The notes beneath the pieces are model-generated. The model did not search any database. It saw only the letters and a list, made by a program, of their open reading frames with translations, and was not told where the DNA came from. A program made the translations under genes and the position numbers. From NCBI GenBank assembly GCA_951406725.2, contig OX597835.1, positions 8,432,001-8,496,000 on the forward strand: DNA of 64,000 nucleotides, read 5' to 3'. Numbering within the stretch: the stretch's first letter is position 1; each line of letters starts with the position of its first letter. This stretch comes from Octopus vulgaris (Eukaryota). This document shows, in pieces, positions 3,967 to 63,818 of the stretch.

Positions 3967-4881
3967 GCAAAGTTAGCAAAAAAATAATTTCGTTCTTCGC
4001 AAATAGAGGGAGTTAGGATATTTTTGTATGACTTCTATGATTGTCATGACTTTTTCCTGTTGACATTTGATAGCCGTTACTTTTACCTTAGTTTTGAAGT
4101 ATATTGCGCGTAAATGTCCTTACAGCTGATAGTTCAATGTCAATTTTAACGTGGAGTGAAAAAACAAACCTTTTCGTCTTATTTTGCTTTTCTTTTTGTT
4201 TCCGTAAAGGCAAGAAAGTTGCTGCGGCTCACAAAGAGATTATATGAAGTTTAAGGTTGGTGATTGCTTAACAGAACGCACAGGTCAGAAACTGTTTTAA
4301 AAATTCCGTTCCAGAGATCTTTTCAATGAAAGATGACCAACCTTGTGCTCGATCTACTGAAGTTGATGATGACCGAATCAAAGTTATAATTGAATCTGAT
4401 AGTCATATAACTGTGCAAAATATAGCAGAGAGGTTAAATGTGTCACACATAAGAACTGAAAATCACTTAAAATGTCTTAGATTCGTTAAGAAAGATGATA
4501 TTTGGGTTCCACATAAATTGAAAGAGATTCACTTAGGGCAACGAATCAATATTTGCGCTATGCATCTCAAACACAATGAAATCGATCTTTCTCTTTTTTT
4601 TTTTTTTTTTGAACGAATCATCACTGATGATAAAAGATACATTGTCTACAATATCATCAATCAAAAACGATCAGGATCAAAGCGCAATGAATCAGCACAA
4701 ACTACATCGAAAGCTGAATTGCACCAAAAACGGTCATACTGTGAATTTGGTGGGATTACAAAGGTGTTGTGTATTTTGAGCAGCTTCTAAGGACCCAAAC
4801 GATCAATTGAGATGTTTACTGTCAACAACTAATGAAACTGGAGAAAACAATCATGCTCCACCATGACAACGCTAGACAAAC

Positions 4882-7545: not shown

Positions 7546-8030
7546 CATCATCATCATTGTTCAACCGTGGTCGAGACAATGGAATTTACCATGCTACGCC
7601 AGACTTCACGGTCCATCATGGCATTACGGAGGTCCTGTTGCTGGATGCCTGTATCCCTGGAGATTACATCAGGGTATGAGAGTGTGCGCCCTCTGGTATT
7701 GCGAGTAGATGGCTTCCAGAGGAGAAGAGTAGAAATTACTTCATTAACAGCTGTACAACAATGTCCAGCAAAGTGAACTCTCCTACCTTTCACAAGGGAT
7801 GACACAGGTGGTAGTTTCCCATATATTTGCATTTTGGTTTGATAGCGCTTCCACGAGAGGTTTTGAGCTCTCATAAGGAGGCGAGTGTAGGTTCCCTCCA
7901 ACCGCCTCTCAAGCTTCTTTGATAACGTCCAGGTTTCTGAGCCATATAGTAGAATTGGTTCGACTGTGGCCTTGAAGATTTCAAGTTTGAAGTCTCTACT
8001 TAGATTTGATGACCAGATCTTATGCATGTC
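7546..8030 (-). mobile_element. 5'-truncated RTE-clade LINE 3' end
   Basis: Uninterrupted 157-aa ORF with ILLYGSETWTL and HFAGHC..RGR..DREVWR typical of RTE C-termini; (TGA)n tail; TSD GATTTTCTTT at 7536-7545 and 8062-8071. Confidence 0.92.
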
Positions 8031-9435
8031 ATTACTCGAAGTGGAAATAATTTCTTTACTCGATTTTCTTTACTCGAAGTGGAAATAATTTCAACAAAAC
8101 AAAAATTTGAATTTTAATGCATAGAAGAATTATTTTCGATTTTGCTGTCGAAAATCACTTTTAGAATCAAACTCGGGGTCTTCTAAAGAGCAAGGCTATT
8201 CGGCTATTCGTAATGAATCGCGAAGACGTATACCAGAATGACAACAGACATTGAAGATCAACAACTTTTGAAATTCCAGAACAGAGATTTTCACCAGATG
8301 AGTCCATCAAGAAAAGTCTGTGTTATCAAGTTAGAAGATAATGTGTTCGCCAGGCCAGCATTGTATTTGTTCACCACGCTTCGTCAGTGATCATGCACAA
8401 CGCACATATTTATAAGTTAATGACCTGATGAAATACATGAAATTTGGCTCAAAGTAACGTACAACCATCATTAGATGCTAAGTTACATTTGAACAACTCA
8501 ATAAACGTAAAAAAAAAAAAATCGAGAGAATTCACTTACAAGGCAATGTCTTACAAAGTATTGTTTTTTCAATTTACGAAAATTTTTCAGATGTTAAGGA
8601 TTTCAGTTGAAGTGATGCGATCCATTTCGACATCAAAACTGAAGATTTATGTGTGTGTGTGTTTGTGTATGTGTGTGTGTGTGCATGCTTGTGTGTATGT
8701 GTGTGTATGTGCTTGTGTGCGTGTATGTGTGTTTCTGTTTGTGTGTATGTGTATGCATGCCTGTGTGTATGTGTGTTTGTGTTTGTGCGTGTGTTACAAA
8801 TTGATGTACAAGGTTAAAGCTCTGGATAATGACTCTGTTAAACCACGACTATTTCCTGATCCGGTTGATCAACTATTTTTACAGATTAGTACAAATCCAT
8901 AATATGTGGAGCATTTCAGGTAAAAATTAATCACCAGAATTAAATTGTTGGTATTTCATTTATTTCCTTGTGATTGGTTCGGAAATCAAAGATGAAAATC
9001 AATAAAATATTAATATCTATAACAAATTTGATCGTTCACAGATCCCGCCATTAGAAAGCGAATCAAAATAAAAATTAGAAGCAAAGAACTCCGAGTAAAA
9101 CAGTCTTAAATACTCACGAAATATATGTCAAGCAATGGTTAGCGAGAAAGAAGGGAGAGGGAGAGAAACAGAGAGAGAGAGAGAGAGAGATGGAGAGAGA
9201 TATAGGGAGAGAGGTAGAGAGAGATGTGAGGGAGAGAGCAGGGATACATGGAGATATGAATACATGTCAAACATAGGTTACCGTGGTGCTGTCACCACAA
9301 TATATAGGAAAGGTAATCATTAGAATAACATGACAAGAGGTGGTAATACAGAGAAAAGGGATTCGGAATAGCACACACACATACACACACACAGGCACAT
9401 ATATATATATATATATATGTACGTATATATATATA

Positions 9436-9712
9436 TAAATTACAAAATGGGACAAGAACTCAAAACATCCAGACAGCTAGGTGATACAAAAAAGGGTCAA
9501 CAAAACATCCAGTAGACGATACAAAGAAAACAAGGACGAATCATTCGGAGTTCTTTTTCCTCAGTTGAGTTCCAGATTATCGTTGCAATTTCGGCTGGTT
9601 ATACTCGAGATTGCTCCAATCTGGCAAACCCCACTCTTTCTGTGGCATTTTCAGGCATTCCTAATTCAAGATTCATTTATAATATATTTGGGGACATATA
9701 TAATTATAATTA
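9436..9712. mobile_element. Putative short non-autonomous cassette beside a (TA)n tract
   Basis: Complex sequence with internal CAAAACATCCAG duplication, bounded by TA runs like the hammerhead cassettes; only one copy in the window. Confidence 0.4.
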
Positions 9713-11197: not shown

Positions 11198-11581
11198 GTG
11201 GAGGCGCAATGGCCCAGTGGGTAGGGCAGCGGACTCGCGGTCATAGGATCGCGGTTTCGATTCCCAGACCGGGCGTTGTGAGTGTTTATTGAGCGAAAAC
11301 ACCTAAAAGTTCCACGAGGCTCCGGCAGGGATGGTGGTGATCCCTGCTGTACTCTTTCACCACAACTTTCTCTCACTCTTACTTCCTGTTTCTGTTGTAC
11401 CTGTATTTTAAAGGTCCGGCCTTGTCACTCTCTGTGTCACGCTGAATATCCCCGAGAACTACGTTAAGGGTACACGTATCTGTGGAGTGCTCAGCCACTT
11501 ACACGTTAATTTCACGAGCAGGCTGTTCCGTTGATTCGGATCAACCGGAACCCTCGTCGTCGTAACCGACGGAGTGCTTCC
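11198..11581 (+). mobile_element. tRNA-derived SINE family A, full length
   Basis: A box TGGCCCAGTGG, B box GTTTCGATTCC; TSD ATCATAAGCATCGT at 11186-11199 and 11582-11595; many near-identical copies in the window. Confidence 0.95.
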
Positions 11582-11820
11582 ATCATAAGCATCGTCACCA
11601 AGATGTACCGCTTCTACAACTGATACTACCAAGACAATCATTAGAGTCATCACTTCCACCACCATCCACCACCACCACCACTAGGTAGTTACAGGAGATG
11701 TCTTCTTGAGTTTAAAAATCGCAGTAGACTCCGTTCGTACGGACCGCCATGTTAAAGTGGCTACGAATATTACTTGTTAGCATAACTACTGAGTTAATCA
11801 CTTAGAGAGATTTTAAAACT

Positions 11821-11903
<83 letters not shown>

Positions 11904-11923
11904 TATATATACATTCGGTAGTT

Positions 11924-12007
11924 TGGTACGATCGCTTCATACTACTTCGTTTTATTAAACATTGTAAGTATTAGATCAGTTTTAAAATGTTGAGCAATCT
12001 TCAGCCA
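11924..12007 (-). ncRNA. Hammerhead motif in left arm (GAAA mutated to GAAG)
   Basis: Minus strand reads TGG-CTGAAGA-TTGCT...AGTAT-GAAG-CGATCG-TA-CCA; palindromic helix III CGATCG. Confidence 0.65.
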
Positions 12008-12097
12008 TTTATAGAAGTCTTCCATCAAACGGACAATACGTACACGAAATGGAAATAAGTATATGTATTGCGCGGTTTGATGGAAGACTTCTATAAA

Positions 12098-12181
12098 TGG
12101 CTGAAGATTGCTCAACATTTTAAAACTGATCTAATACTTACAATGTTTAATAAAATGAAGTAGCATGAAATGGTCGTACCA
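12098..12181 (+). ncRNA. Hammerhead motif in right arm
   Basis: TGG-CTGAAGA-TTGCT...AGCAT-GAAA-TGGTCG-TA-CCA; helix III is a decayed CGATCG. Confidence 0.65.
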
Positions 12182-12293
12182 AATTACCGAAGATATCCTT
12201 GTTGCTTATTTTGATTATAATCACCCCATGGATTTATATGGATAATACCATGCCAAATTCTGGTGCCTCTGACTTAAGTACCATATCATTTGA

Positions 12294-19299: not shown

Positions 19300-19610
19300 A
19301 TATAATATTTCTATTATTGAAAACAAGTGGATGTATTCCACTGTAACTAGGTAAATAAAATCTTCGAACAGACGGTCAGTAGCGACACCTGCTGGTTCTG
19401 ACTACGCTGCATTGATAAAGGGCAACAACCCTGAAACATGTCTGCAGATATCTGACTAGCTAGGTGAAGCGGCTGACCTCCCCTGTTCAAAGGTTGTAAT
19501 GGACGCAGGTTCGTGTGTCATATAGCTAGCTAGAGGCGATGACCTCTTGGAGCTAATCAGCGACAGCTTTAGTCTTATTTATAGACTGCCATATTAGTAT
19601 GGCGATAACT
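19300..19610 (+). mobile_element. Short hammerhead-bearing cassette between (TA)n tracts
   Basis: Structured cassette with hairpins AGAGG..CCTCT, AGTCT..AGACT and GCCATA-TTAG-TATGGC; TA runs on both sides. Confidence 0.65.
19407..19447 (+). ncRNA. Minimal hammerhead ribozyme with variant U3-A8 core
   Basis: CTGCA-TTGATAA-AGGG-CAACAA-CCCT-GAAA-CATG-TC-TGCAG; all helices perfectly paired; palindromic ACATGT helix III; GUC triplet. Confidence 0.8.
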
Positions 19611-25282: not shown

Positions 25283-25612
25283 CACACATGTATAATGTAG
25301 GCAATATAAAATCTAAACTGTTACATTCCTGTATTACAATCTAGTTTGTTGTTGCCGTTGTTTTATTGATCTGAGGTACATATTTGCAGTTCTGAATCCT
25401 GACAATATTGTGTGCAGTGATATTATACAAAAAACTATCGAGTTGGAATTTTTTATTGACATTATTTATTCACCATTACATATATTTCATATGCTAATAG
25501 GAATTACAAAGTTGTCCATGTTTTTCGAACATGGACAATTTTGTGTTTCCTGCTTGCAAATGAAACATGTAATGGAAAATAAATATTTCCCAAAAGTTTC
25601 TGTTTTATATAC

Positions 25613-25642
<30 letters not shown>

Positions 25643-25649
<7 letters not shown>

Positions 25650-25912
25650 GTCAGCAGACGCCGACCAATAAGTACTGTTGCTCCCATTGGAACACAAGGT
25701 AAAATCTATAATGAACTCCTCGCCTTTTCAAGAACATGGATTTTTTATATTTGACTCTATTGAATGTATGTCACAATTATGAACTGTTCCATCATACTCT
25801 TTAAACATATAGCATGGACTCTCTTTTTTTGATAAGGTTCGTTATTTCAAGAACCGAAACATGTAAAATTAAAATTTATCTAATATAGCGGCATTTTCAA
25901 ACTTCATTTTTT

Positions 25913-25916
<4 letters not shown>
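25643..25916 (+). mobile_element. Short hammerhead-bearing cassette between (TA)n tracts
   Basis: Begins with hairpin TTATTGGTC..GACCAATAA; TA runs on both sides. Confidence 0.6.
25826..25868 (+). ncRNA. Minimal hammerhead ribozyme with variant U3-A8 core
   Basis: TTT-TTGATAA-GGTTC-(10 nt)-GAACC-GAAA-CATG-TA-AAA; helix II GGTTC/GAACC; palindromic ACATGT; weak A-U helix I. Confidence 0.7.
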
Positions 25917-25951
<35 letters not shown>

Positions 25952-25954
<3 letters not shown>

Positions 25955-26141
25955 TTTATTTTAAGCAGCAGAAAATTCAACAAAATCTGTTACTCTGAGT
26001 TTCTCGTTGCCGTTCATCAGAAACTCAGAGTAACAGATTTTGTTGAATTTTCTGCTGCTTAAAATAAAGCATATTACTCTACCACTGGTATTTGAGTACT
26101 TTTTTTTCCACCTTGTTTCACATTTATGTGTTTACTCCGGT
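25952..26141 (+). mobile_element. Hammerhead family H2 element with 5' inversion (perfect arms of about 51 bp)
   Basis: 25954-26004 is the reverse complement of 26019-26069; 3' part matches 55000-55101; TA runs on both sides. Confidence 0.8.
25987..26020 (-). ncRNA. Hammerhead core (H2), helix I broken by the inversion junction
   Basis: Minus strand reads CTGATGA-ACGGCAACGA-GAAA-CTCAGAG-TA-ACAG. Confidence 0.7.
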
Positions 26142-27883: not shown

Positions 27884-29292
27884 CTTTCTATCTCTATGTA
27901 TCTTCACTTTAAAATATCTCCAAAGCCACATGGCCGCCAGAAATCCGAAACGAACAGTAAACATTTGTACTAAAAACTGATTTATTTTTGAAAAATACTT
28001 GGAATGGGAGAATAAACCAGAAGGCAAAAAAGAGACTTTTTTTCTGTCGCTTTATCTTTTTTTTCCTTCTTTAACAATCCCTGATTTTCTTTCTTCTCTG
28101 GCCGAGACTGACTTAATATCATTACCACTCATATGTTATTATTTCCTTTAATTCTATTGGGAGACATTTTTTTTCATGTCGGAAGCCATATTTTTCAGCC
28201 GGGAGCCACATTTTTTTTTTTCTGTTTCCGATCTTGTTTTATATTTATTTCATTTCATTTTCACGCTCTTCTATATTTCATCTGGTTTTTTTTTTTGGTT
28301 TTTTTTTTTGGCATTATTTTCATGCCACCAGCGTCAACACCACCACCACCACCACCGCCGCCGCCGCCGCCGCCATTGTACTTTCAGTAGGTAAGAATGC
28401 CAAAAGAGGTTACCTTAAAGAGACATCTGTACATCATTGGATTATAATGAATCAAAGCTTGCACAACACGAATGCCTCTCTCTCTCTCTCTTGTTCTACG
28501 TGATTAGTAATTGGTGACAGGCCGAAGCGAGGTGACCAGTAATCGCGTGAAAACGCAGGTTTTTACATGTGAGTGTCCTTCTCCAAGAAGGATGTCGTGA
28601 CAAATGTTTGCTTTCCCAGTGGTTCCACACTCCTCAGAATACTGGAACTCCCAAAACTGACCCCCCACCACCACCACCACACTGGTTTAAAATGTTCATA
28701 CACAGGAGTTACAAACATACAAACACATCCACGTACGCACACACACACACAGAATTGATAGCGACAGAAGCAACATTAATACCAAAAGGTAATATTGATA
28801 ACTCAATGCCGCGGTTGTGTTAGAACACAGAGTACGGCGTTATATTACCCTGAGAGAATTCCTCACACGAACTCGTGGTGCATATAAGCACTCGAAATTA
28901 TATCATCGATAGAAGAGAATTGCCTGCTACCAACACCGGAAATACGAGATCGCGTAATTTCACCTTGCTATGGGTTCGTCGGTGTAAAACGCTCTGCAGG
29001 CGTGATAACAGCCAAATCTCCTCTCAATGATATAGATCCTATATTATAGAGAATCTCAATGGCTATTGAGTCACTGGTATGGCAAAGTAAATAACGCGTT
29101 TTACTGTCTTCTAACACAACATCTAAGTTAAGCGGAAGGTTAAGATTACTTTTTGGTATTAAAACTCATTCTGTCGCTTTTAACAACCAGTCTGCCTATT
29201 TGCAGCATTAGTGTCTGAATAGGACGCCAAACATAACATGTCCGGTGTGGGGATGATCTTTCTCGTCACGGTATGATGTTGGACCGTTGACC

Positions 29293-29611
29293 TGGCAGAA
29301 ACGTTAACACGCCGGTCCAAATGCCTAGCGGTATTTCATCTGCCGTTACGTTGTGAGTTCAAATTCCGTCAAGGTCGACTTTGCCTTTCATCCTTTCGGG
29401 GTCGATAAATTAAGTACCAGTTACGCACTGGGATCGATGTAATCGACTTAATACCTATGTCTGTCCTTGGGGACAAACAAGGACAGGCAAAAGGATTAAG
29501 TCGATTACGTCGACCCCCCAGTGTGTAACTGGTACTTATTTAATCGACCCCGAAAGGATGAAAGGCAAAATTGACCTCGGCGGAATTTGAACTCAGAAAG
29601 TAACGGCAGAC
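29293..29611. mobile_element. Two SINE family B fragments fused tail-to-tail (fold-back)
   Basis: Plus copy 29293-29470 abuts minus copy 29470-29611. Confidence 0.9.
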
Positions 29612-31441: not shown

Positions 31442-31635
31442 ATCCAAACAAAAAAACACAGCAACGCGAGGACGTGGAACAAATAAAGTATTATTGGACG
31501 CTCAGGAAGAAGGGAAGAAGGAGAGCTTAACGTTTCGAGCGGAGCTCTTCGTCGGAAACAAAGGAGAAGGAAAGATCCCGAGAAGGGAAGACAGAGGGAA
31601 AAAAAATTTGCTGGCGGTGCTCACGAGGTCACATT
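31437..31635 (-). mobile_element. Hammerhead family H1 element
   Basis: Homologous to 886-1093; abuts (TA)n. Confidence 0.75.
31525..31559 (-). ncRNA. Minimal hammerhead (H1), CCGACGA core variant
   Basis: Minus strand reads GTTT-CCGACGA-AGAGC-TCC-GCTC-GAAA-CGTT-AAGC. Confidence 0.7.
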
Positions 31636-32973: not shown

Positions 32974-33360
32974 GTGGAAGCGCAATGGCCCAGTGGTTAG
33001 GGCAGCGGACTCGCGGTCATAAAATCGCGGTTTCGATTCCCAGACCGGGCGTTGTGAGTGTTTATTGAGCAAAAACACCTAAAAAGCTCCACGAGGCTCC
33101 GGCAGGGGATGGTGATCCCTGCTGTACTCTTTCACCACAACTTTCTCTCACTCTTACTTCCTGTTTCTGTTGTACCTGTATTTCAAAGGGCCGGCCTTGT
33201 CACTCTCTGTGTCACGCTGAATATTCCCGAGAACTAAGTTAAGGGTACACGTGTCTGTGGAGTGCTCAGCCACTTACACGTTAATTTCACGAGCAGGCTG
33301 TTCCGTTGATTCGGATCAACCGGAACCCTCGTCGTCGTCGTAACCGACGGAGTGCTTCCC
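32974..33360 (+). mobile_element. SINE family A, full length
   Basis: Near-identical to 11198-11581. Confidence 0.95.
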
Positions 33361-34787: not shown

Positions 34788-35169
34788 GGAGCACTCCGTC
34801 GGTTGCGACGATGAGGGTCCCAGCTGATACGATCAACGGAACAGCTTGCTCGTGATATTAACATGCAAGTGGCTGAGCACTCCACAGACACGTGTACCCT
34901 TAACGTAGTTCTCGAGGAGATTCAGCGTGACACAGAGTGTGACAAGGCTGGCCCTTTGAAATACAGGTACAAGAGAAACAGGAAGAAAGAGCGAGAGCAA
35001 ATTGTGGTGAAAGAGTACAGCAGGGTTCACCACCACCCCCTGCCGGAGCCTCGTGGAGCTTTTGGTGTTTTCGCTCAATAAACACTCACAATGCCCGGTC
35101 TGGGAATCGAAACCGCGATCCTCCGACCGCGAGTCCGCTGCCCTAACCACTGGGCCATTGCGACTCCAC
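34788..35169 (-). mobile_element. SINE family A, full length
   Basis: Reverse complement of family A; TSD CGTGGCATGTA at 34774-34784 and 35170-35180. Confidence 0.95.
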
Positions 35170-35192
35170 CGTGGCATGTAACTTGCTATCCA

Positions 35193-37657: not shown

Positions 37658-39925
37658 GGCGGCGAGCTGGCAGAAACGTTAGCACGCCGGGCGAAATGCT
37701 TAGCGGTATTTCGTCTGCGTTACGTTCTGAGTTCAAATTCCGCCGAGGTCGACTTTGCCTTTCATCCTTTCGAGGTCGATAAATTAAGTACCAGTTACGC
37801 ACAGGGGTCGATGTAATCGACTTAATACCTATGTCTGTCCTTGTTTGTCCCCTCTGTGTTTAGCCCCTTGTGGGTAATAAAGAAATGGGTATTTCGACTC
37901 CGTTACGTTCTGAATTCAAATTCCGCCGAGGTCGACTTTGCCTTTCATCGTTTCGGGGTCGATAAATTAAGTACCAGTTACGCACAGGGGTCGATGTAAT
38001 CGACTTAATCCGTTTGTCTGTTCTTGTTTGTCCTCTCTGTGTTTAGCCCCTTGTCGGTAGTAAAGAAATAGAAATAGGTATTTCGTCTGCGTTACGTTCT
38101 GAGTTCAAATTCCGCCGAGGTCGACTTTGCCTTTTATCCTTTCGGGGTCGATAAATTAAGTAGCAGTTACGCACAGGGGTCGATGTAATCGATTTAATAC
38201 CTCTGTCTGTCCTTGTTTGTCCCCTCTGTGTTTAGCCCCTTGTGGGTAATAAAGAAATAGGTATTTCGTCTGCGTTACGTTCTGAGTTCAAATTCCGCCG
38301 AGGTCGACTTTGCCTTTCATCGTTTCGGGGTCGATAAATTAAGTACCAGTTACGCACAGGGGTCGATGTAATCGACTTAATCCGTTTGTCTGTTCTTGTT
38401 TGTCCTCTCTGTGTTTAGCCCTTGTCGGTAGTAAAGAAATAGAAATAGGTATTTCGTCTGCGTTACGTTCTGAGTTCAAATTCCGCCGAGGTCGACTTTG
38501 CCTTTTATCCTTTCGGGGTCGATAAATTAAGTAGCAGTTACGCACAGGGGTCGATGTAATCGACTTAATACCTATGTCTGTCCTTGTTTGTCCCCGCTGT
38601 GTTTAGCCCCTTGTGGGTAATAAAGAAATAGGTATTTCGTCTGCGTTACGTTCTGAGTTCAAATTCCGCCGAGGTCGACTTTGCCTTTCATCGTTTCGGG
38701 GTCGATAAATTAAGTACCAGTTACGCACAGGGGTCGATGTAATCGACTTAATCCGTTTGTCTGTTCTTGTTTGTCCTCTCTGTGTTTAGTCCCTTGTCGG
38801 TAGTAAAGAAATAGAAATAGGTATTTCGTCTGCGTTACGTTCTGAGTTCAAATTCCGCCGAGGTCGACTTTGCCTTTTATCCTTTCGGGGTCGATAAATT
38901 AAGTAGCAGTTACGCACAGGGGTCGATGTAATCGATTTAATACCTCTGTCTGTCCTTGTTTTCCCCTCTGTGTTTAGCCCCTTGTGCGTAATAAAGAAAT
39001 AGGTATTTCGTCTGCGTTACGTTCTGAGTTCAAATTCCGCCGAGGTCGACTTTGCCTTTCATCGTTTCGGGGTCGATAAATTAAGTACCAGTTACGCACA
39101 GGGGTCGATGTAATCGACTTAATCCCTTTGTCTGTCCTTGTTTGTCCTCTCTGTGTTTAGCCCCTTGTGGGTAGTAAAGAAATAGAAATAGGTATTTCGT
39201 CTGCGTTACGTTCTGAGTTCAAATTCCGCCGAGGTCGACTTTGCCTTTTATCCTTTCGGGGTCGATAAATTAAGTAGCAGTTACGCACAGGGGTCGATGT
39301 AATCGATTTAATACCTCTGTCTGTCCTTGTTTGTCCCCTCTGTGTTTAGCTCCTTGTGGGTAATAAAGAAATAGGTATTTCGTCTGCGTTACGTTCTGAG
39401 TTCAAATTCCGCCGAGGTCGACTTTGCCTTTCATCGTTTCGGGGTCGATAAATTAAGTACCAGTTACGCACAGGGGTCGATGTAATCGACTTAATCCGTT
39501 TGTCTGTCCTTGTTTGTCCCCTCTGTGTTTAGCCCCTTGTGGGTAATAAAGAAATAGGTATTTCGTCTGCGTTACGTTCTGAGTTCAAATTCCGCCGAGG
39601 TCGACTTTGCCTTTCATCGTTTCGGGGTCGATAAATTAAGTACCAGTTACGCACAGGGGTCGATGTAAGCGACTTAATCCCTTTGTCTGTCCTTTTTTGT
39701 CCCCTCTGTGTTTAGCCCCTTGTGGGTAATAAAGAAATAGGTATTTCGCCTGCGTTACGTTCTGAGTTCAAATTCCGCCGAGGTCGACTTTGCCTTTCAT
39801 CCTTTCGGGGTCGATAAATTAAGTACCAGTTACGCACAGGGGTCGATATAATCGACTTAATACCTATGTCTGTCCTTGTTTGTCCCCTCTGTGTTTAGCC
39901 CCTTGTGGGTAATAAAGAAATAGGT
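37658..39925 (+). repeat. SINE family B head followed by a 12-unit tandem array (183/189 bp units)
   Basis: Units start GGTATTTCG at about 37705, 37888, 38077, 38260, 38448, 38631, 38820, 39002, 39191, 39374, 39557, 39740. Confidence 0.97.
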
Positions 39926-39949
39926 ATGATGTTGGACCGGTGGAAAATA

Positions 39950-52139: not shown

Positions 52140-53215
52140 AATTATAGAGTGCCCTAGCTACAGCAGGATCAACTTCTAACTGATCTTTCAGTTCATGACA
52201 CGCATTCAGTTGTGACTGCTTTTGATTCTCCGTGAGCAAGCGAGGCATAAATTTTGCTGCAACTCTTGTCATTCTCAATTTCTCGCTCAAAATTCGTTGG
52301 CAGGAGGTCCAGGACACACCAGTCATATTAAGGAGTCAATGATGTTTGACAAATATTAACAAGTTCGTGATGTTTTCATTCGTTTGGGAAGTAGACTGTT
52401 GCCCTGTACGAGATATAGAGAATACCAAACGAGTTCCCTATGGATACCATATTTATTACAACGAGTGGCTTATAAACGTATCTAACGAGCGAAAGCTAGT
52501 TAAATACGATTACAAGCCACGAGTTGTAATAAAAACGGTATCCATAGGGAACTCGTTTGGTATTTCATTTATTACACACGAATAAACGACCATATTTTAT
52601 TAACCCAATAACTAATTTCTTAACGTTTAGTTGTAACTTATGAATGACAAAAGTAGTGCCGTCACTGTGACCTCAGGTCATCACCATGGATTGACCAATC
52701 AGAAGCAGCGCTGTCACCGTGACCTCGGGTCATCACCATGGATTGACCAATCAGAAGCAGCGCTCGCAGTATCTGACATACGTTAGATACCCAAAATATC
52801 TCAAAGTGTTCTCACTCACATGTGTGTAATAATAGATTGTTTTAAAGCGACATGTGACAATTGCCAGAGCGTGAAAGCTACTCCCAAGCTAGTGTTTTGT
52901 TTATGACAACGTCCTTGTAAGCTGTTTCATGCATGACAACTGTTTCGGCCGCCATTTTACCCAGTAGAAACAGAATTTCACGGAAGCACGCCGTTCCTTG
53001 GTTTCATCCATTGTAAAAATCGACGAACAGGGGAGAAGAACTGTCAAAACTGTGACGCACCACATGACAGCATGCCCCTCCCCCCACCAGACAACGCTTA
53101 TCGGAAGAGTGATGCCTTAGGATCGCACCTAATGGCTTCTAGCGGCAGAAGCCTGAACTATAACGAGCTTGTCCCACAGATAACATTTCCAGTTACTTTT
53201 TGGTACGTCCTCGTA
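52140..53215 (-). mobile_element. Mariner 5' half interrupted by a palindromic insert
   Basis: TIR TACGAGGACGTACCAAAAAGTAACTGGAAATG on the minus strand near 53215; MDETKERRASVKFC..AAETV near 53010; SCQRILSEKLRMTRVAAKFMPRLLT at 52138-52326. Confidence 0.85.
52415..52835. mobile_element. Palindromic non-autonomous element (Crypton-like or MITE-like) nested in the mariner
   Basis: 70-bp arms 52421-52490 and 52495-52564 around GAAA; TTATTACACAC..GTGTGTAATAA sub-terminal inverted pair; 52-bp tandem duplicate 52661-52764; class assignment is inference. Confidence 0.65.
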
Positions 53216-54625: not shown

Positions 54626-54886
54626 ATGTTCTGTCTCTTTTTCTTTTCCCTTGTCTATTGGTATCTCTGTTTGTTCGTCTCACCCCTCTCTCTCTCTCCC
54701 TGTCGCCCCTATCTCTTTCACTTTTTTACTTTTAAAAAAGCAATAAGTTGCGGCTGATCTGCGATCGATATAGTGAAGGAATCACCCATGTTCAATATTC
54801 ACATGGCCCTTAATTATTTATTCATGTTCACTTAAAAAGCAGCAGAAATATAACAAAAGCTGTTACTCAGTTTTTTTTTAACAAAA

Positions 54887-54924
54887 CTGTCCGAAGAACG
54901 GGAACGTGAAACTCTGAGTAACAG
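54887..54924 (+). ncRNA. Minimal hammerhead (H2 copy 1), CCGAAGA core variant
   Basis: CTGT-CCGAAGA-ACG-GGAA-CGT-GAAA-CTCTGAG-TA-ACAG. Confidence 0.75.
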
Positions 54925-54979
54925 CTTTGTTATATTTCTGCTGCTTTCAAATAAAGTATATATATATACTTTATTTAAA

Positions 54980-55017
54980 CTGTCTGATGAACGGCAACGA
55001 GAAACTCCGAGTAACAC
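54980..55017 (+). ncRNA. Minimal hammerhead (H2 copy 2), canonical core
   Basis: CTGT-CTGATGA-ACGGCAACGA-GAAA-CTCCGAG-TA-ACAC. Confidence 0.8.
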
Positions 55018-55119
55018 ATTTTGTTGAATTTTCTGCTGCTTTAAATAAAGCATATTACTCTACCACTGGTATTTGAGTACTCTTTTTCCCACCTTTTTTC
55101 ACATTTATGTGTTTACTCC

Positions 55120-55168
<49 letters not shown>

Positions 55169-58535: not shown

Positions 58536-58760
58536 TTATTTCTTTATTGCCCACAAGGGGCTACACACAGAGGGGACAAACAAGGACAGACAAGCAGATT
58601 AAATCGATCCCAGTGCGTAACTGGTACTTATTTAATCGACCCCGAAAGGATGAAAGGCAAAGTCGACCTCGACGGAATTTGAACTCAGATTGTATCGACA
58701 GACGAAATACCGCTGAGCATTTCGCCCGGTGCGGTAACGTTTCTCCCAGCTCGCCGCCTT
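58536..58760 (-). mobile_element. SINE family B
   Basis: Reverse complement of family B; older degenerate pieces nearby at about 58440-58510 and 58870-59010. Confidence 0.9.
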
Positions 58761-60957: not shown

Positions 60958-61190
60958 AACTAAACTGCTGCTAGAAAACTGCTCACAATTGATGTTTGAG
61001 GTAAAGTCTTCATGACCATTGACAAAAAATCGCAGCTAAATATCTTTCAAATTTCACACAACCATATTAAGCGAAGAAAGCACACATTGAAAACTCTCGG
61101 TTCCGGTAGCAGAAAAGAATACGGACACCCATGCCTGTCTTTTTCTTTTACTCTAAGCCTGTTCGATCAGTAAGAACTATAACAACAAAA

Positions 61191-61575
61191 GTGGAGGCGC
61201 AATGGCCCAGTGGTTAGGGCAGCGGACTCGCGGTCGTAGGATCGCGGTTTCGATTCCCAGACCGGGCGTTCTGAGTGTTTATTGAGCGAAAACATCTAAA
61301 GCTCCACGAGGCTCCGGCAGGGGATGGTGGTGATCCCTGCTGTACTCTTTCACCACAACTCTCTCCTACTCTTACTTCCTGTTTCTGTTGTACCTGTATT
61401 TCAAAGGACCGGCCTTGTCACTCTCTGTGTCACGCTGAATATCCCCGAGAACTACGTTAAGGGTACACGTGTCTGTGGAGTGCTCAGCCACTTGCACGCT
61501 AATTTCACGAGCAGGCTGTTCCGTTGATTCGGATCAACCGGAACCCTCGTCGTCGTAACCGACGGAGTGCTTCCA
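61191..61575 (+). mobile_element. SINE family A, full length
   Basis: Near-identical to other A copies; TSD ATAACA(A/C)CAAAAGT. Confidence 0.95.
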
Positions 61576-62103
61576 TTCCATAACACCAAAAGTAGCAACG
61601 GGAAAACTCGAAGCGTTCATTTGTAAGAAGCTTCTCTGTGTTGCCTTAAACAAACTTATTCTCTCTTATTCGAATTTACGCATGGTCTCCTCTAAGAAAT
61701 CAACAGAATGGATGGCGCTCGACCAATCAACCAAATGATTGTACGAAGCAGCAGGTTTACGGCTCGCGAATTACAGACTGCTCTTGCTTTCGGTTCCGTT
61801 GCTTCCACTCTGGTGCAGCGCTAAGTCATCGTCAGAACTAAACAACTTCACTTCCACCATCTGAGCTGGTAGAGAGTCTTCAGCTTTGCCAAGCAGAAAC
61901 ACTATCAATATCGCAATGACATCAAGAAGAATTGATAAGATCACGTCGTTTCCTTGTTAATTCTATCATATCAATCATTATTACATTCGTGCTAAGTATA
62001 TGCACACAGAAACACGCACACACACACACACACACCCTACGCACGCACACATACACGCATACACTCATACATACTCTCTCTCACACACACAGACGCACGC
62101 ACG

Positions 62104-62356: not shown

Positions 62357-62936
62357 GTTCTTCAAAACTGAAATATTTTCAATTATCAGAAACTACAGGA
62401 GGTTTGAAATTTGAAAGAAGGGATTTTGCTGAAATATTATAATTGGATTTCAGGAGAAGTGTACCAAGTATTAAGAGAAGGATTCAACTAAACTTGATAC
62501 AATGCGGTAAAATATATACCGTGATATTGTTACAAAGCTATGAAGCACGTTTTTAGCAGAATTTCCCTTCCTGCGTTCGAGATCGACTTTGCTTTCATCT
62601 TTCCAGGTCGATTAAATATACCTCTACCGTACAGATGCGCGTATAATCAACCTTTTTCTCTTTCTCAAATGCAAGAAATTATCTTAAGTAAAGAGACTCT
62701 TTTATCGATTTTACCAGCAAATAGGCAAATATAATACAGTTTATTTGATTGTTCTCATCTCGGCAAACAAGTTACATGGCGTTAGCAATATTTAACCAGT
62801 GGAGATGCCAATATGTGGTTGTGTTATCCGCTAGAAAAAACAAGCAATCAAATTTGTCGATACTTCCCATTCTGCGTAATATTTCTAAAATCCTAGTCCT
62901 AGTTGTACAGGATTCAGAAAGACGTATTCATCATAG

Positions 62937-63318
62937 GTGGAGGCGCAATGGCCCAGTGGTTAGGGCAGCGGACTCGCGGTCGTAGGATCGCGGTTTCGAT
63001 TCCCAGACCGGGCGTTGTGAGTGTTTATTGAGCGAAAACACCTAAAGATCCACGAGCCTCCGGCAGGGATGGTGGTGATCCCTGCTGTACTCTTTCACCA
63101 CAACTTTCTCTCACTCTTACTGCCTGTTTCTGTTGTACCTGTATTTCAAAGGGCCGGCCTTGTCACTCTCTGTGTCACGCTGAATATCCCCGAGAACTAC
63201 GTTAAGGGTACACGTGTTTGTGGAGTGCTCGGCCACTTACACGTTAATTTCACGAGCAGGCTGTTCCGTTCATCGGATCAACCGGAACCCTCGTCGTCGG
63301 AACCGACGGAGTGCTTCC
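62937..63318 (+). mobile_element. SINE family A, full length
   Basis: TSD ATTCATCATAG. Confidence 0.95.
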
Positions 63319-63818
63319 ATTCATCATAGATAGAACGCCATACACGATCAAGAGCTGATAGCAATTACAAGTATATATGCGTGTGTATGTGTGCATAGTT
63401 TTCGGCGGGTGCGGCCACTTTGAATAATTTTGTTGAAATTTTGGAAGGACATTTCACCGCCGGACTAAATGGGGGAACAAAACGCACATTTGATAACTCG
63501 ATACGTCGCATTTAGCCCAAACCCGAATCTTCATGAAGTTATGCTCTTCATTCACTATTTTAGTCACCGGAAACGCATACACAGGTGGAATTTTTCATAT
63601 CACTTGGATACAGCTAACTTACATATTTATGAACACAGCTTTCTCTACTCCTCCACCACTCACACCTAACTTCTCTGAATACCAATTTCCTCTAAAATTA
63701 ATAGCTGAATTTTTAATCAATAGATTATTTTGGTATATTGACTAGCCCTGAAATTTGTTGCCTAAGTGGGCCAAGAAGAGAAATTCACTACGAAGAAGTA
63801 AATAGTTCTCCCCGTATA

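Follow-up and report, generated by a model that had tools for sequence, protein, structure and literature searches.

The cassette at positions 25644-25916 of the window, the whole stretch of 64,000 nucleotides of Octopus vulgaris DNA analysed here, is a solo copy of a multi-copy repeat lying in a TA microsatellite. It is probably what remains of the end of a Penelope-like retroelement (PLE) after 5' truncation, and it carries a type I hammerhead motif in which a U3-A8 pair carried by the whole family is predicted to replace C3-G8. The motif is named below by the first position of its box 1, 25829, and is compared with a second motif at 19412. The features are as follows.

25616..25643: (TA)n microsatellite on the left, presumably the insertion target
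25644..25916, plus strand: solo copy of the multi-copy repeat, 273 bases; 5' end specific to this copy, body and 3' end shared
25644..25671, plus strand: short terminal inversion with 9-bp arms at 25644-25652 and 25663-25671
25736..25826, plus strand: internal unit of ~91 nt, single here and in tandem in other copies
25826..25828, plus strand: helix I 5' strand UUU, inside the 7-T run 25824-25830
25829..25835, plus strand: hammerhead box 1, TTGATAA, with U3 = 25829 and A8 = 25834; no variant listed
25836..25855, plus strand: helix II, GGTTC 25836-25840 and GAACC 25851-25855 with a 10-nt loop, starting with G10.1-C11.1
25856..25865, plus strand: GAAA box 25856-25859, CATG 25860-25863, T25864 = U16.1, A25865 = N17
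25859-25864, plus strand: palindromic ACATGT, A15.1-U16.1; predicted cut 3' of 25865
25866..25868, plus strand: helix I 3' strand AAA; the sequence after it is AU-rich
25917..25952: (TA)n microsatellite on the right
19407..19447, plus strand: motif used for comparison, a type I hammerhead of the U3-A8 kind, box 1 at 19412, in the second TA-flanked cassette 19309-19609
856-1091, 9438-9696, 31453-31605, 54836-54947 and 54969-55121: short cassettes with C3-G8 boxes, each defective

The motif at 25829-25865 (plus strand) is made up of TTGATAA, a 5-bp helix II, GAAA, the palindromic ACATGT and a GUA triplet, and our parsing of the letters agrees with the earlier note, which had described it as TTGATAA / GGTTC..GAACC / GAAA / CATG / TA. 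All elements of a type I core are present: the boxes N3-UGAN-N8-A and GAAA, A15.1-U16.1, H17, and positions 3 and 8 that can pair. Helix II has 5 bp, begins with G10.1-C11.1 and is predicted with pair probabilities of 0.68-0.98. The two reservations made earlier, that U3 lies in a T run (25824-25830) and that helix I is A-U only, are both correct. Helix I consists of three contiguous A-U pairs followed by two U-U mismatches, and its predicted pair probability in the monomer is 0.01-0.03. The region folds no better than its shuffles (z 0.05 and -0.29). In the lowest-energy fold, an upstream stretch at 25812-25816 pairs with CAUGU of helix III, a predicted pairing that may switch off the 25644-25916 copy; the stretch belongs to a region partly missing from other copies.

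The motif at 19412 has the identical box 1 and the identical GAAACATGT, together with a 4-bp helix II, C at N17 and a 5-bp helix I containing three G-C pairs, so that the double change and the ACATGT do recur there, as had been claimed. When the two cassettes were compared by BLAST, nothing matched apart from the 9-nt GAAACATGT and words of 7-8 nt attributable to chance; the description of the cassettes as unrelated therefore stands. Runs of (TA)n flank both cassettes, 25644-25916 and 19309-19609, and each is present once in the window as judged by self-BLAST after masking.

Part of the cassette is present in 20 of the 24 sequencing runs listed, which belong to 10 studies and carry four organism labels. 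In the four runs that were aligned (X2, X6, X14 and X8, from four studies with three organism labels; X2 may be of the same source as the window), 393, 330, 135 and 65 contigs matched the cassette, most of them more than 90% alike, so the repeat has many copies and is young; neither a copy number nor a ranking of parts was drawn from contig depth. Among the listed runs containing the cassette none has RNA on record as its source. That X8 is an RNA run is a guess, and its 65 contigs were not counted as evidence of transcription.

The contig alignments, in which variants below 3% of depth are invisible, list 11 sites of substitution at or above that level in the cassette across the four runs, none of them within 25818-25864. 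Thus no change of at least 3% is listed at U3, A8, helix II, GAAA or CATGT; T>C is listed nowhere in the cassette, and the sole A>G is at 25878. Both 25829 and 25834 are spanned by 10 of the 32 listed contig pieces. Given that neither T>C at 25829 nor A>G at 25834 reaches 3%, U3-A8 is the state of the family. The earlier assertion that this pair is not a product of random decay is accordingly upheld, as the whole repeat family carries U3-A8 in four runs and the change has been published as compensatory. The variation that does occur spares the stems: no substitutions, and hence no covarying pairs, are listed in helix II, where indels are confined to loop II, with insertions in other copies at 25844 and 25848. 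At N17, A>T at 25865 accounts for 12-27% of depth in three runs and keeps NUH, and insertions at the cut site (an extra A in some copies) preserve GUA followed by AAA. All these changes in loop II, N17 and the cut site look compatible with a hammerhead, which is suggestive. The absence of substitutions across 36 nt has P = 0.18 and is not significant alone; with a family this young, the constancy of the core does not establish selection.

If the cassette is a truncated PLE end, a Penelope-type reverse transcriptase (RT)/endonuclease would have inserted it by priming in AT-rich DNA. In the active fold, a U3-A8 pair would take the place of C3-G8. Because helix III has two pairs and a 2-nt loop, the monomer is not expected to fold; two RNAs of the same family would have to meet, their ACAUGU palindromes forming a 6-bp intermolecular helix III. 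As A15.1 pairs with the partner's U16.1, the 3' strand of helix I at each junction would come from the partner, and only with the helix I strands exchanged in this way would the RNA be cut after A25865. A homodimer model of 25829 has 3+3 helix I pairs and -10.0 kcal/mol, against a lowest fold of -19.2 kcal/mol in which box 1 is buried; the corresponding model of 19412 has 5+5 pairs and -25.4 kcal/mol, with a lowest fold of -29.7 kcal/mol. With a helix I of just three A-U pairs and a fold predicted to be unstable, cutting would be slow or would rely on the protein of the element, as reported for PAc (Poseidon of Anolis carolinensis), the anole element.

The same weakness admits another reading, namely that the motif descends from a real hammerhead whose cutting was lost throughout the family, so that it now spreads passively with the element's 3' end and U3-A8 is kept only by the youth of the family. 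Helix I at 25829, three A-U pairs, is predicted to be unformed, and one loose contig end has A/T-rich sequence before the T run in other copies too, so that the weakness is family-wide. The constancy of the core has P = 0.18, and PAc ribozyme mutants still insert in vitro (PMC11167929). However, the listed changes fall in loop II and in N17/helix I, never in boxes or stems, and the PLE-linked motifs of PMC4209133 include some with an equally weak helix I (the Adineta and Schmidtea rows). We therefore consider a family-wide loss of cutting unlikely, and retain a weak dimeric ribozyme on a truncated Penelope-like end as the preferred reading.

The anatomy of the cassette bears on what kind of element it came from. 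In all four runs, the contigs have loose ends before 25673 that carry different, A/C-rich sequence of up to 30 letters, and behind 25911 a loose end (3 contigs, run X8) is TA-rich. The 5' ends differing before 25673, the 9-bp inversion and the TA-rich 3' flank suggest a 3'-anchored, 5'-truncated retro-insertion. These traits, with (TA)n on both sides, are those of truncated PLEs, for which PMC8557442 describes inverted truncated 5' copies and a (TA)n bias, and the inversion at 25644..25671 appears to resemble such inverted 5' ends. The hammerhead lies near the 3' end of the repeat, the 25829 motif stopping 48 nt before the end of the cassette. No RT or GIY-YIG Pfam match was found in the 63 stop-to-stop frames of at least 70 aa in the whole window, so that no link from the cassette to an autonomous PLE is established. 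The 25829 motif probably acts as dimeric hammerheads of the PLE type do, and PLE membership is not established as no ORF is linked to it. The 25644-25916 copy is solo, has no neighbour of the same family, and is probably a passive insertion.

Instead of a truncated PLE end, the cassette might be a single unit of a non-LTR retrozyme: it measures 273 nt, has no ORF, and its palindromic helix III of 2 bp is like that of canonical type I motifs in animals. Solo retrozyme monomers are described in bioRxiv 10.64898/2026.07.22.740005 and PMC7229834. Yet no head-to-tail joint of the cassette is listed in the four runs, where contigs can show presence and not absence. The only joints listed, from 25826 back to 25736 in runs X14 and X8 with similar ones in X6, repeat the internal unit of ~91 nt, which does not contain the ribozyme. 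Sequence upstream of 25673 is different in other copies, and helix I at 25829 falls far below the 6 bp of canonical motifs. Taken together, a retrozyme origin seems very improbable to us beside that of a truncated Penelope-like end.

It could further be argued that the motif is a chance match in an AT-rich 3' end, where a hairpin happens to stand beside TTGATAA and GAAACATGT. The 2-kb bin around the motif has 24% G+C, U3 lies in a T run and the fold is no better than that of shuffles. A search of the cassette 25644-25916 against Rfam, with E up to 10, gave no hammerhead match and one weak U1 match; across the whole window, the 150 matches listed of 322 were microRNA models on simple repeats and hairpins, with no hammerhead, 19412 included, among them. 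Against chance, simple repeats were masked (27% of the window) and shuffles were made from the 44,957 unmasked bases. A strict descriptor matched twice in the window, at 19412 and 25829, and in none of 300 dinucleotide shuffles. A looser descriptor likewise gave two real matches, against a shuffle mean of 0.025-0.028; at least one U3-A8 match occurred in 10 of 400 shuffles, dinucleotide and trinucleotide alike, and two or more matches in 0 of 400 dinucleotide and 1 of 400 trinucleotide shuffles. These odds are optimistic, as the descriptors were composed after the motif was seen. When any base was allowed at positions 3 and 8, the type I scan returned three candidates in the window, two of which, 19412 and 25829, have a palindromic helix III, and both are U3-A8. 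G10.1-C11.1, the exact spacing of the boxes, the palindrome and NUH are all there, and hammerhead boxes also occur in other cassettes of this kind. A chance origin is thus highly improbable.

Counts of single variants with the looser descriptor in the window, a tiny sample, were 0 for U3-G8 and 0 for C3-A8 against 2 for U3-A8. Pattern scans for the motif found nothing in viral contigs and nothing in metagenome contigs. The 23 pattern matches in prokaryote genomes were dismissed as chance, with ~19.5 expected and BLAST similarity at E 1e-3 in 0 of the 23.

The earlier note proposed that shared helix III palindromes could allow heterodimers between families. Active mixed dimers of 19412 and 25829, whose ACAUGU is identical and able to pair between RNAs, are hardly credible. 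In a type I dimer each RNA lends its partner a strand of helix I, and when the two families are combined the first positions are A-A and U-U mismatches, with 0 pairs at either junction, against 5+5 and 3+3 pairs in the homodimers; the lowest-energy mixed fold leaves the palindrome unused. At most, the model suggests, 19412 and 25829 RNAs would form a non-productive 6-bp duplex. By our own reasoning, a shared ACATGT comes cheap, since only four palindromic 2-nt loops exist once C15.2-G16.2 is given. The literature covered yielded no report of hammerhead heterodimers. The modelled geometry gives a useful negative: a common helix III palindrome is predicted to be insufficient for mixed dimers.

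As to the origin of the common core, the 19412 and 25829 families may have it by shared descent. A bolder reading, which we think improbable, would have C3-G8 switch to U3-A8 independently in two unrelated high-copy families and would give the 25829 family a hammerhead whose helix I contains no G-C and which cuts only when clamped by the protein of its own retroelement. If this were true, the genome would provide a large natural data set on catalytic base-pair swapping, via a U3-G8 wobble step, and on protein-dependent ribozymes. CpG decay was also considered as the origin of the double change and was rejected because, with T at position 7, neither position 3 nor position 8 falls within a CpG.

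As a whole, the window is microsatellite-rich animal DNA in which remnants of mariner-like and LINE-like elements occur. Relaxed scanning of its whole length, together with a loose look at 14 chosen regions, detected six more hammerhead-like motifs with C3-G8, at 1018(-), 9564(-), 26020(-), 31555(-), 54891(+) and 54984(+), each defective elsewhere; matches of the relaxed scan at 12147 (+) and 63633 (-) were discarded as probable chance. Hammerhead-like motifs therefore occur at about 1 per 8 kb, and U3-A8 makes up 2 of 8, in 2 of about 5 families, while both motifs found by the strict descriptor in the window are U3-A8. Position 4 is C (CCGANGA) in the motifs at 54891 (+) and 31555 (-), which belong to different families, and U in their siblings 54984 and 1018; C4 may be decay or a tolerated variant. 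The neighbouring cassette 25953-26140, which is itself TA-flanked, consists of an inverted and then a direct copy of the 54969-55121 family, which together produce a near-perfect hairpin at 25954-26069 with arms 91% alike. Within it, on the minus strand, the CTGATGA...GAAA motif at 26020 has had its helix I 5' strand replaced by the inversion.

Several other repeats were noted. A tandem array with a period of ~185 nt covers 37705-39927, with related single copies at 29289, 49768, 58537-58760 and 60725; no motif in the array or in these copies passed the relaxed hammerhead scan. A dispersed repeat of ~390 nt, presumably SINE-like, has copies 90-96% alike at 11198-11588, 32974-33359, 34790-35170, 61167-61583 and 62914-63322, and shorter pieces elsewhere. 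Long imperfect inverted repeats, either MITE-like or inverted insertions, are found at 11914-12191, 25463-25585 (directly upstream of the cassette 25644-25916), 52421-52564 and 29339-29610. A broken transposase piece with a weak HTH match lies at 4272-4790 (+) and is taken by us to be mariner-like, and a C-terminal piece at 7554-8069 (-) with a DUF6451 match we take to be LINE-like.

Published systems place the 25829 motif in a known class. The novelty that the earlier note had implied for the U3-A8 core does not hold: natural U3-A8 covariation, with C3-G8 to U3-A8 as a compensatory change, was published in 2011 (Perreault et al., PMC3088659), where U3-A8 ribozymes are said to be already active in vitro, citing Przybilski and Hammann 2007, and the core also occurs in Penelope-type elements (PMC4209133). 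The 25829 motif shows the same compensatory change of the C3-G8 pair as these natural variants; what sets it apart is its place in a multi-copy repeat of an animal, its dimer-type helix III and a helix I made only of A-U pairs.

The closest likeness is to the minimal and near-minimal type I hammerheads in PLE pseudo-LTRs of animals described by Cervera and De la Pena 2014 (PMC4209133). These authors reported U3-A8 in the Cercyon PLE of Schistosoma mansoni, with ~1,300 matches, mostly single, and the motif that they assayed had low activity in vitro and none as a monomer. Their consensus has a U-rich flank, a 3-bp helix I, a palindromic helix III and an AU-rich flank. By our own count of the 56 rows of their Fig. 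S3, helix I has at most 3 bp in 29 and is without G-C in 3, U3-A8 is found in 2 and U3-G8 in 1 (Saccoglossus), and an extra base stands between 9 and 10.1 in 54. The short or G-C-free helix I and the U-rich flanks in this alignment turn the earlier reservations into typical traits. The 25829 motif shares with these elements the type I form, the short helix I, the U-rich 5' and AU-rich 3' flanks, G10.1-C11.1, the palindromic helix III, U3-A8 and occurrence mostly as single dispersed copies. One Xenopus row has the helix II stems and GUA triplet of 25829, and the 2-nt insert in helix III is as in fly, rotifer and shrimp variants. In contrast to most rows, 25829 is without the extra base between 9 and 10.1 (missing in 2 of 56), and no PLE ORF was found adjoining it; octopus is not among the species of Fig. 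S3.

The hammerhead of PAc, which cuts only with protein and is dispensable for insertion in vitro (Frangieh et al. 2024, PMC11167929), resembles 25829 in being a small PLE-type hammerhead; PAc prefers AT-rich targets and provides the model of protein-assisted cutting. It differs in having C3-G8 and a known RT/GIY-YIG ORF, whereas the 25829 motif is U3-A8 and no such ORF was found in the window. Retrozymes form tandem units of 150-400 nt that give rise to circular RNA, and solo monomers occur (PMC7229834; bioRxiv 10.64898/2026.07.22.740005). The cassette is like the animal non-LTR retrozymes (Cervera and De la Pena 2020, PMC7229834) in being non-coding, ~270 nt long and provided with a type I hammerhead, and unlike them in that no tandem of ribozyme units was seen in the window or the four runs and that helix I is too short for the loop 1-loop 2 form.

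Recently active Penelope families are known in Octopus vulgaris from PMC13282606, whose main text does not use the word 'ribozyme' and whose repeat library may already contain the 25829 family. We found no report of this family in the literature covered, in which cephalopod hammerhead papers were judged by title and the start of the abstract. Rfam misses the U3-A8 motifs, so that scans fixed on CUGANGA undercount them. Known hammerhead chemistry and the Penelope elements are unchanged by the 25829 finding; it extends the known class of U3-A8 hammerheads by a further animal lineage and two further repeat families.
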